A stretch of DNA of 34,856 nucleotides, taken from a virus. How positions within the stretch are numbered: position 1 is the first letter of the stretch; every line of letters begins with the position of its first letter. The notes beneath the pieces were generated by a model. It was not told the DNA's origin, did no database searches, and saw only the letters and a list, made by a program, of their open reading frames with translations. The translations under genes were made by a program, and so were the position numbers. Positions 18,079 to 21,000 of this stretch are shown one piece after another. The DNA is taken from the UHGV virus genome UHGV-0299912; one strand, given 5' to 3'.

Positions 18079-21000
18079 TCAGCTGATACTGATACCTGCT
18101 GTGGATTTCTTCATCACCACAACCAGCAGATCGCTGATACTGGTTGTTGGTGTCCAGTTATTCGCTCCTGATGAAGATACGGTGAATGTCAGTGTCAGCG
18201 TCCCCTGTCCGGCAGGCATATCTATAACTGAGGAAAATACGCCCTGAGCATCCGTCGTGGACTGATTAAAAATCTCCTGACCATTGCGGGTCACTCTTAA
18301 CCGGCAGGTTGAATACCAGTACGACTGTTGGTTATTACTGTTGAAATTCTCATGCTTACCACCGCGGAATAACACTGGCGGTATCATGACCTGCCGGTCA
18401 AATTTCTGATCATCACTGATTCTTACCGTGATGGTGCCACTGGCATAACTGTTCGTGCGGGGGAAAGACTTGCTGACCGTTTTGACAATATCGCCTTCAA
18501 TCTGATTGGCTGACAGTTTCCCCTTAATCTGACAGTTCTCATTAATCGTGACATTGTTGAGCGTCCCGGAGTTCGCATTCACACTGCCACTGATATCCGC
18601 ATTTTTAGCAGTCAGCTTTCCGTCCGGTGTCAGGGAAAATGCCGGTGGATTTCCACCACTGGTAATGGTGGGGGCCGTCAGGCGTTTCAGGAACACGTCG
18701 TTCATGAATATCTGGTTGCCCTGCGCCACAAACATCGGCGTTTCATTCCCGTTTGCCGGGTCAATAAACGCGATACGATTGGCGGCAACCAGAAACTGAC
18801 TCAGTTTGCCTTCCTCTGTATCCTCCATACTGAGGCCAATACCCGCGACATAATGTTTGCCGTCTTTGGTCTGCTCAATTTTGACGCCCCACATGGCATT
18901 CCACTTATCACTGGCGTCCTTCCACTCTTTCGAAAACTCCTCCAGTCTGCTGGCGTTATCCTCCGTCAGCTCGACTTTTTCCAGCAGCTCCTTGCCGAGA
19001 TGGGATTCGGTTATCTTGCCTTTGAAAAAATCCAGGTAACCTTCCGCATCATCGCTCGCCCGACCAACAGCCTCCACGAATGCCGATTTGCCGACGGTGT
19101 TCACACTGCGGATATAAAAGTAATAATCACGACCCGGTTTGATATTGATACTGGCGGCTATCCAGTACAGCCCCGTGCCAAGGTAGCGGGCTGTGGTTTC
19201 AACCTGCCTGATATCCGCAATCCGCTTTTCCGAGAACCAGAACTCAAACTGTACCGTCGGGTCATAAACGGCAAGATGCGGCGTGGCAGTTATCTGAAAA
19301 TAGCCCGGCGTCAGCTCAATCTGTGACGGCGCTGCCGGTGCGGCAATCCGGAACGATACCGATGCCGGATCGCCCTGCTGTCCCCACGCATTTACCGCCC
19401 GGACTGTCAGCCTGTAGTTCCCCAGCGCCAGTTGCGTGAAGCGGTATGTGGTTTCCGCCGTCCGGGCCGTGCTGACCAGCCGCTCACTGCCGTCATCCGC
19501 TGCCACGGTCAGGCGAAGCAGGAAGCTCACCCCCTTCACCACCTTCGGTGTGTCCCAGCGCGCCAGCACCTGATATTCCCCGCTGTCTGCGGTGACTTCT
19601 GCGGTCAGGTGCTGCACCGCTGGCGGCGTGACACCATTTACCGTGCCGCTCTGGTCGCCGTCAAAGTGCGCCCCGTTATCCACGATGGCCTCTTTTTCCG
19701 GTACATGCTGCACGGCGGTGATGGCATACGTGCCGTCGTCGTTCTCACGGATACTCACGCAGCGGAACAGGCGCTGGCGCAGCGTCGGCAGCTTCAGCCC
19801 CCATACGCTGTATTCAGCAACGCCGTCAGGAACACGGCTCACTTTCACCTTCACGCCGTCGGTGACGGACTGAACCTCCACGCTGACCGGACTCCCCTGC
19901 CCGTCAACCAGGCTTATCAGCGTGGTGCCGGAAGATGGCAGCGTGATTTCACGGTCGAGCGTCAGCGTCCGGGTCTGGCTGTTTACCGCCAGCACGCGCC
20001 CGCCGGTGCGGATACCGGCATAGTCATCATCGCAGATTTCAATGACATCGCCCGGTACATGGCGAAGCCCTTCGGCACCCACGCTGAAGTCCACGGTCTG
20101 CGTTTCCAGCAGTTCTGTTTTAATCAGCCACAGCCCGGCGCGGTGTGCCTGCCCCCGGCTGGTACAGCCAAAAGCATCCATCTTCGTGACGTTACGACCG
20201 TAACGGAGAATGGCCTGCGTGTCCTCCACAAGCTCTGTCGCCGTCTCCCAGCCGTTATTCGGGTCAATCCAGTTCACCTCAACGGCATTATGGCGGTCTT
20301 TCAGGGCGCTGAAGCTGTAGCGGAACGGCGCGCCATCATCCGGCATCACCACATTACTGCGGTTATAGGTCCACACCTTATCCGACGGTCGGCCCTGCAC
20401 GAACGTCAGCGTCTGCCCGTTCCATACCGGCATACAGCGCATCGCCGAGCAGAAATCACTGAGCACATCCCACGCCTTGCGCTGTGTGGTCAGGTACGCA
20501 TTACAGGTGATGCGCGGCTCCGTGCCGCCAAAACCGTCCGGCACCGACTGATCGCAATGCTGGCCGATGACATACAGCGCCCATTTGTCCACATCCGCCG
20601 CACCAAGACGTTTCCCCATGCCGTAGCGCGGATGGGTCAGCATATCCCACAGACACCAGGCCATGTTGTTGCTGTATGCCGGTTTAAACGTTCCGTCCCA
20701 GATACCGCTGTATTGCCGCGTCTGCGGGTTATAATTCGACGGCACCTGCAGAATACGCCCGCGCAGATGATAATTACGGCTCACCTGCTGGCTGCCGAAC
20801 TGCTCCGAATCCACCTGCACGCCGACCAGTGCCGTGTTCGGGTAGCACTGTTTCACATCGATGATTTCGGTGTATGACGACCAGAGCGTTTTGTTCTGCA
20901 GCTGGTCTGTGGTGCTGTCCGGCGTCATTCTGCGCATCCGGATATTAAACGGGCGCGGCGGCAGGTTATCCACCACCACCGAGGCCAGATACTGCGAGGT

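Follow-up and report, generated by a model that had tools for sequence, protein, structure and literature searches.

In phage lambda, J is a trimer whose C-terminal Ig-like domains reach into the receptor trimer with four distal loops (L1 to L4), and upon binding to LamB these domains splay at the bottom, a change that passes up the straight fibre and the helical shaft and opens the tail tip, as described by Ge and Wang (PMC11101478). The receptor is not the same for all lambdoid phages. Phage 434, the classical OmpC-using lambdoid phage that is also represented by the lambda h434 hybrids, has OmpC as its receptor (PMC11101478), and phage 21 natively uses LamB, but a single substitution in its J protein, I1025T, adds OmpC, and laboratory evolution has produced variants that use LamB and OmpC and then LamB, OmpC, and OmpF with 1 to 4 substitutions (PMC11336670).

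A further set of J ends was described by Brödel et al. (Nature 2024; PMC11338833), and the sections of that paper drawn on here report lambda gpJ chimeras with C-termini taken from gpJ variants that occur naturally in E. coli phages. Variants with another receptor were sought with a lamB-deleted recipient, and chimeras were assayed in ΔlamB ΔompC cells with plasmid-borne OmpC variants. According to the same sections, chimera A8 reached approximately 90% of the population whether the OmpC variant was that of MG1655 or that of EDL933; A8, a second chimera named 1A2, or both were effective on 21 of 23 OmpC variants in ΔlamB ΔompC cells, and for the other two neither gave efficient delivery. The functional data given there for A8 were obtained with an engineered lambda particle with a P2-type side fibre. 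Two PDB entries, both released on 2026-01-28, hold the same protein and carry the titles "Closed state of A8 gpJ 713 central tail fiber" (9wca) and [quoted passage not shown] (9wcb), the latter with three chains of "Outer membrane porin C" in addition. Our literature search found no paper describing them, and both entries are cited here by their PDB titles only.

Here we describe the J gene of a lambda-type temperate phage contained in a stretch of 34,856 nucleotides of viral DNA (UHGV-0299912; the whole stretch is referred to as the window), with a focus on the receptor-binding end of the protein. The J receptor allele, its receptor OmpC, and its structure are already published, and the locus adds no new biology in this respect.

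The J gene and its domain layout

J and its parts are located in the window as follows.

18079..21477, minus strand: gene J including its stop codon, encoding the tail-tip or central tail fibre protein of 1132 aa (open reading frame list and translation)
18559..21477, minus strand: lambda-like part of J, codons 1 to 973, with the hub domains, two FNIII/Ig domains, the helical shaft, and most of the straight fibre
18082..18558, minus strand: exchanged receptor-binding module, codons 974 to 1132, of A8 type (predicted to bind OmpC)
18082..18456, minus strand: Ig-like receptor-binding domain proper, residues 1008 to 1132 (Pfam PF12421)

In the open reading frame list, J is the sole long frame over 18079..18560. 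The other frames of at least 30 aa that overlap positions 18079 to 18560 encode 41 to 83 aa and were treated as chance open reading frames without support; all of them are located inside J, save one that straddles the J stop codon, and some are on the opposite strand.

The protein matches the PDB chains of the lambda "Tip attachment protein J" end to end in a phmmer search (E = 0), and six Pfam families (Phage-tail_3, FNIII-A_GpJ, Ig_J, Ig_J_second, Phage_Tail_Tip, and Ig_GpJ_C) are found in the lambda order, all above their curated cutoffs. The last of these, PF12421 (Ig_GpJ_C, [quoted passage not shown]), covers residues 1008 to 1132 with an E value of 4.8e-36 and 124 bits, compared with a curated cutoff of 26.2 bits. 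The protein thereby shows the domain series characteristic of lambda gpJ (TipJ), consisting of the hub, FNIII-A, two Ig/FNIII domains, the tail-tip fibre, and a C-terminal Ig-like domain, and its gene has the position expected of a member of this group, at the distal end of an H-M-L-K-I-J tail cluster and followed by lom and the side-fibre genes. Judged by domain content and gene order, J is the protein that forms, as a trimer, the tail tip and central fibre of a lambda-type siphovirus. The J protein of lambda (PDB 8iyk, 8xcj, and 8xck) shares its length, domain architecture, and gene neighbourhood; the two differ in that their last 160 residues are only 45% identical and in the receptor, which is LamB for lambda and, as discussed below, OmpC for the J protein described here.

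Exchange of the receptor-binding module

The original prediction held that J has the exact length of lambda J and its N-terminal and central sequence but a diverged C-terminus of about 150 residues. The first two points are confirmed by alignment with the lambda reference (NC_001416), in which J is also 1132 aa in length and to which residues 1 to 972 are 97.2% identical (27 mismatches). The third is likewise correct: residues 973 to 1132 are 45.0% identical to lambda J, with 88 mismatches in 160 residues plus indels in variable loops, and the pairwise alignment thus lacks the high identity over the C-terminal stretch that is the mark of the lambda-type, LamB-binding allele. The C-terminal peptides quoted at the time, for example STAGISIS, are present in the translation. 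Only the wording that these residues do not match the lambda C-terminus was a slight overstatement; the divergence is real, but the divergent end remains homologous to the receptor-binding domain of lambda, as indicated by a phmmer E value of about 1e-34 and by the match to Pfam Ig_GpJ_C.

The transition between the two parts is abrupt. In bins of 99 nt, the DNA identity of the J gene to lambda is 89 to 99% up to gene nucleotide ~2870, then 82%, and then 50 to 61%, and the last long identical run stops at nucleotide ~2920, that is, at codon 974 (Ser in lambda and Asn here) and window position ~18558, within two bases of the boundary of the diverged region given in the original prediction (18560). 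Identity falls at codon 974 from approximately 95 to 98% to approximately 50 to 60% over about 40 nt. A step of this kind is far beyond chance and is read here as the recombination joint of a module exchange, because the drop from about 98% to about 55% is completed inside some 40 nt; for the same reason, a gradual divergence of the J C-terminus was considered and ruled out. The suggestion that domain swapping had occurred at this end of J is thus supported at the DNA level. The block unlike lambda extends from J codon 974 through a terminator-like hairpin and most of lom to about window position 17480, and identity to lambda is back at 92 to 100% only from about 17478.

The breakpoint falls inside a stretch of J that is shared by distantly related alleles.

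18532..18603, minus strand: conserved junction, residues 959 to 982, with the breakpoint inside it at codon 974 (23-allele alignment)

Residues 959 to 982 are invariant or at least 90% conserved over 23 diverse J alleles, and this stretch is likely to be a shared site of domain exchange among them, as judged from the alignment. The J end described here is a clean natural example of receptor-binding module exchange at a conserved junction.

Phage 434 J shows a similar arrangement, with a lambda-type body (97.3% over residues 1 to 972) and a swapped C-terminus. However, 434 J is 1137 aa in length, and an alignment of the two proteins, which had been proposed as a check, gave an identity of 46.9% over the last 160 residues, far from the high identity to the 434 J C-terminus expected of a 434-type OmpC-binding allele; the two ends are therefore different alleles. 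Since OmpC is the receptor assigned to both, recognition of this porin has arisen in two or more forms of the domain that bear little resemblance to each other.

The closest classical allele is that of phage 21 (OL657228), which is 81.9% identical over the last 160 residues without indels and belongs to the same clade, the 29 substitutions in 160 residues including many in variable segments. Phage 21 J is 1160 aa in length, 28 residues longer than the J protein described here, with the additional residues located in the fibre shaft. The two phages also share the icd-targeting integrase region and the sitC/sitD cargo. When the J genes are compared at the DNA level (OL657228, 1010..4492), identity is 91 to 100% up to gene nucleotide ~2376, 62 to 80% at nucleotides ~2377 to 2870, which encode the fibre shaft, and 70 to 91% in the receptor-binding domain. 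The shaft and the receptor-binding domain of J appear, from these comparisons, to be exchanged as separate modules.

The receptor of the A8-type domain

The original prediction also stated that the diverged end implies a receptor other than that of lambda. Divergence and similarity by themselves do not allow the receptor of this domain to be predicted, as phage 21 is closer to it than lambda is and yet uses LamB. The assignment to OmpC is made instead because the domain is 100% identical to the tested A8 domain and not because of similarity alone. All of the last 163 residues of J (163/163) are identical to chain J of 9wca and 9wcb, "A8 gpJ 713"; when the comparison is extended to residues 716 to 1132, all mismatches are located upstream of residue 849, where the PDB construct has lambda residues, and residues 849 to 1132 are identical. 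The 3' DNA of the J gene also corresponds to "GpJ A8" in the Supplementary Information of PMC11338833, matching 549 of 566 machine-read bases, and the mismatches are mostly single-base dropouts of the machine reading. An A8 protein string was not found in these supplements, in which the sequences are printed as DNA.

The domain is thus identical to one that uses OmpC in lamB-deleted cells (PMC11338833) and whose structure has been solved with OmpC (9wcb), in agreement with the predicted change of receptor. We consider it very probable that the C-terminal domain of J binds OmpC as the A8 type does, a property shown by others on the identical domain. The A8 chimera and the J protein described here have the same lambda-type body of 1132 aa, an identical end from residue 849, and the same 3' DNA. 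They differ in that A8 is a laboratory fusion on a lambda J backbone and was carried by particles with an engineered P2, K1F, or K5 fibre, whereas this J is encoded by a natural gene with 27 substitutions in residues 1 to 972 and has its own intact side tail fibre gene adjoining it. With no more than 27 of 972 residues changed relative to the lambda backbone of A8, the natural protein is nearly the one that was tested, and by analogy the natural phage would be expected to behave as the A8 chimera does.

If so, this phage, together with the numerous prophages of E. coli and the Stx phages with long tails that have the same J end, is expected to adsorb via OmpC and not via LamB. The use of OmpC bears on the prediction of host range and on the routes to resistance, which would be expected to run through changes in ompC or ompR rather than in malT or lamB.

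For structural predictions, residues 940 to 1132 were modeled with AlphaFold with the 23-allele alignment, from which frameshifted homologues had first been removed (mean pLDDT, 84.8). The model superposes on 9wca and 9wcb, which are the best Foldseek matches at 100% identity, followed by the lambda fibre structures 8xck and 8xcj at 53 to 54% identity and TM scores of 0.67 to 0.69. In the model, then, the C-terminal domain keeps the Ig-like fold of lambda with a different sequence. Over the 23 natural alleles, the framework of the domain is conserved (for example, DMPAGxG), and variability gathers in four segments.

18439..18459, minus strand: hypervariable segment 1, residues 1007 to 1013 (RTNSYAS), with indels in other alleles, between model strands 998 to 1003 and 1014 to 1022
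18307..18366, minus strand: hypervariable segment 2, residues 1038 to 1057, with the top variability, a model β-hairpin with its tip at 1047 to 1049
18229..18267, minus strand: hypervariable segment 3, residues 1071 to 1083 (variability track), with a model hairpin turn at 1075 to 1077
18139..18174, minus strand: hypervariable segment 4, residues 1102 to 1113 (variability track), in a model loop at 1105 to 1116

In the order listed, these segments form a loop, two hairpin tips, and a loop, and segment 2 is five residues longer than its lambda counterpart and gapped in the lambda alignment. Their number and alternating placement are consistent with L1 to L4 of lambda J, and we infer from the model that they would be the loops that contact OmpC.

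Taken together, it is very probable that recombination in the conserved stretch of residues 959 to 982 joined a lambda-type J body to a different C-terminal Ig-like allele, and that the distal loops of this A8-type domain dock on the trimeric porin OmpC in place of LamB. As in the case of lambda and its receptor LamB, the binding of OmpC would then spread the three J domains apart, and the change would move up the fibre and open the tail tip for DNA ejection. Opening triggered by OmpC is suggested because closed and OmpC-bound open states of A8 exist and because the mechanism is established for lambda and LamB. We place high confidence in this account as a whole, that is, a swapped A8-type domain, OmpC as the trigger, and a lambda-like opening of the tip.

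Other readings of the locus have to be weighed against this one, and the most serious is that the domain is polyvalent and accepts LamB or OmpF as an alternative to OmpC, as do the evolved variants of phage 21. The phage 21 domain, at 82% identity (29 of 160 residues different), is a native LamB user that gains OmpC and OmpF through as few as 1 and at most 4 substitutions, and receptor choice is therefore labile in this clade. Furthermore, the A8 assays used ΔlamB or ΔlamB ΔompC cells, and in the sections of PMC11338833 drawn on here we found none on LamB-bearing cells that lack OmpC; the use of OmpC by A8 may thus not be exclusive. However, no data show the use of LamB by the allele described here, which retains isoleucine at residue 997, the equivalent of phage 21 I1025, and hence is without the I-to-T change that made phage 21 promiscuous. 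In addition, delivery into ΔlamB ΔompC cells was scored via plasmid-borne OmpC, as reported in those sections, and was not efficient with 2 of the 23 variants, which speaks against a porin-independent or OmpF route in that setting. We therefore regard a polyvalent domain as unlikely, and we hold the wider version of this idea, in which the domain combines OmpC with residual LamB use in nature or in which J and the intact side fibre both target OmpC, to be equally improbable. Were the domain polyvalent, it would parallel in nature the phage 21 variants whose receptor range was widened by laboratory evolution, and if J and the side fibre both acted on OmpC, infection would hinge on one porin.

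That the domain recognizes LamB only, its divergence being antigenic or allelic variation without a receptor switch, would be in line with phage 21, whose domain is about as dissimilar from that of lambda and still uses LamB, but is hardly credible given that the identical A8 domain delivers DNA in an OmpC-dependent manner into lamB-deleted cells and has been solved bound to OmpC. The J gene could also be part of a decaying cryptic prophage, with a receptor specificity that has no present function. Many copies of this allele in E. coli are located in prophages, and a genome often has more than one (median, 2 places; maximum, 10); the protein database contains numerous copies that are truncated or frameshifted, and the sitC cargo gene in the window is itself truncated. 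On the other hand, J is uninterrupted at 1132 aa, the surrounding I, K, L, M, H, G/T, V, U, Z, head, lom, stf, and tfa genes are full length, and the region is ~96.6% identical to that of plaque-forming phages such as PhiR29_2, 2H10, and Turner, which makes decay very improbable. The preferred reading thus remains an A8-type domain that was acquired by module exchange and acts on OmpC.

Distribution of the allele and neighbouring genes

The allele is common. Among GenBank phages, 19 records match the last 163 residues at 99% identity or more and 25 more match at 95 to 99%, and the carriers at 95% or more include Stx1a- and Stx2a-converting phages as well as Lys8385Vzw, 2H10, Turner, Chlobot, PhiR30_1, and PhiR70_1. 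In complete E. coli genomes, the domain core (399 nt, matched over at least 80% of its length) is found in 1470 of 5426, or about a quarter, and the best match in the 1727 matching records is at 99% identity or more in 742 and at 95 to 99% in 773. The carriers include O157:H7, O111, and O103 strains, often with several copies per genome, and RefSeq labels the copies "gpJ: phage attachment tail tip protein J." For the ECOR-induced PhiR series, to which the closest phages belong, no relevant receptor data emerged from a literature search, and the Stx phage review PMC8065619 contains none for long-tailed Stx phages with this allele.

A protein database search with this domain returned mostly partial or frameshifted fragments. 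The listed homologues P0062, P0067, P0069, P0076, P0077, and P0083 are frameshifted or fused to terminase, portal, DUF1441, or helix-turn-helix N-termini, and such odd proteins are probably artefacts of assembly or gene calling at contig ends or decayed prophage copies.

Upstream of J, the genes I, K, L, M, H, T/G, V, U, and Z through to E, D, Nu3/C, and B are found on the minus strand. The late region is ~96.6% identical over ~84% of its length to plaque-forming ECOR-induced phages such as PhiR29_2. The window as such is absent from the 5426 complete E. coli genomes, which cover at most 69% of its first 25 kb; the closest match, in genome mip270_05, is a prophage with HK97-type head genes and a different context. 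Downstream of J are the following features.

18042..18061, minus strand: hairpin resembling an intrinsic terminator, with a T run, in the J-lom interval (consensus scan: stem of 8 bp, 5 of them GC, and TTTTTTT after it)
17412..18011, minus strand: lom (Ail/Lom outer-membrane protein), divergent allele (Pfam Ail_Lom, E value of 8e-120; 47% to lambda Lom)
14396..17353, minus strand: stf, intact side tail fibre, 985 aa, without the frameshift of lambda PaPa type
13815..14396, minus strand: tfa, side-fibre assembly gene, 93% identical to lambda Tfa

Phages 434 and 21 both have an annotated terminator at this site. The mechanically called lom frame (17412..18050) starts at 18050, inside the terminator hairpin, and the likely start is the ATG at 18011 that follows GAGAGG, which gives 199 aa as annotated in relatives. 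The same lom-stf-tfa region also accompanies different J ends, as in PhiR29_1, and hence lom and the J end are not strictly linked.

The N-terminus of Stf is 88% identical to lambda orf-401. Over its last 233 residues, Stf shares 70% identity with lambda orf-314, and the His-rich tip contains indels; the middle of the protein, about 250 residues (roughly 501 to 752), is without a lambda counterpart. The side fibre of Ur-lambda has been reported to bind OmpC in the sections of PMC11338833 drawn on here, and by analogy J and Stf of the phage described here might target the same porin.

Beyond the side-fibre genes, positions 11497..13034 (plus strand) of the b region hold host-type cargo, namely, sitC and sitD, which encode permeases of an iron/manganese ABC transporter. 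The sitC gene is 5' truncated, with 227 aa that match the Pfam ABC-3 profile from position 52, and sitD is full length with 285 aa; no frames for sitA or sitB ahead of sitC are contained in the open reading frame list of the window. In phage 21, sitC and sitD occupy the equivalent position, and the complete sitABCD set is found in a related E. coli prophage. Positions 10071..11500 (plus strand) encode a lambda-family integrase of 380 aa, followed directly by about 280 nt that match the int-icd junction as annotated in E. coli chromosomes. This int-icd segment has some match in 5425 of the 5426 E. coli genomes, with at least 80% of the query covered in 1679. By its sequence, the ~280-nt segment is identified as a phage-borne copy of the icd 3' end, as in the icd-integrating phage 21 and e14. 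It adjoins the b region and the tail-fibre genes, which indicates that the attachment site is unsplit, and the gene order P-O-cI...exo-xis-int / sit-tfa-stf-lom-J is the vegetative order of a phage, which a prophage integrated at icd would not show.
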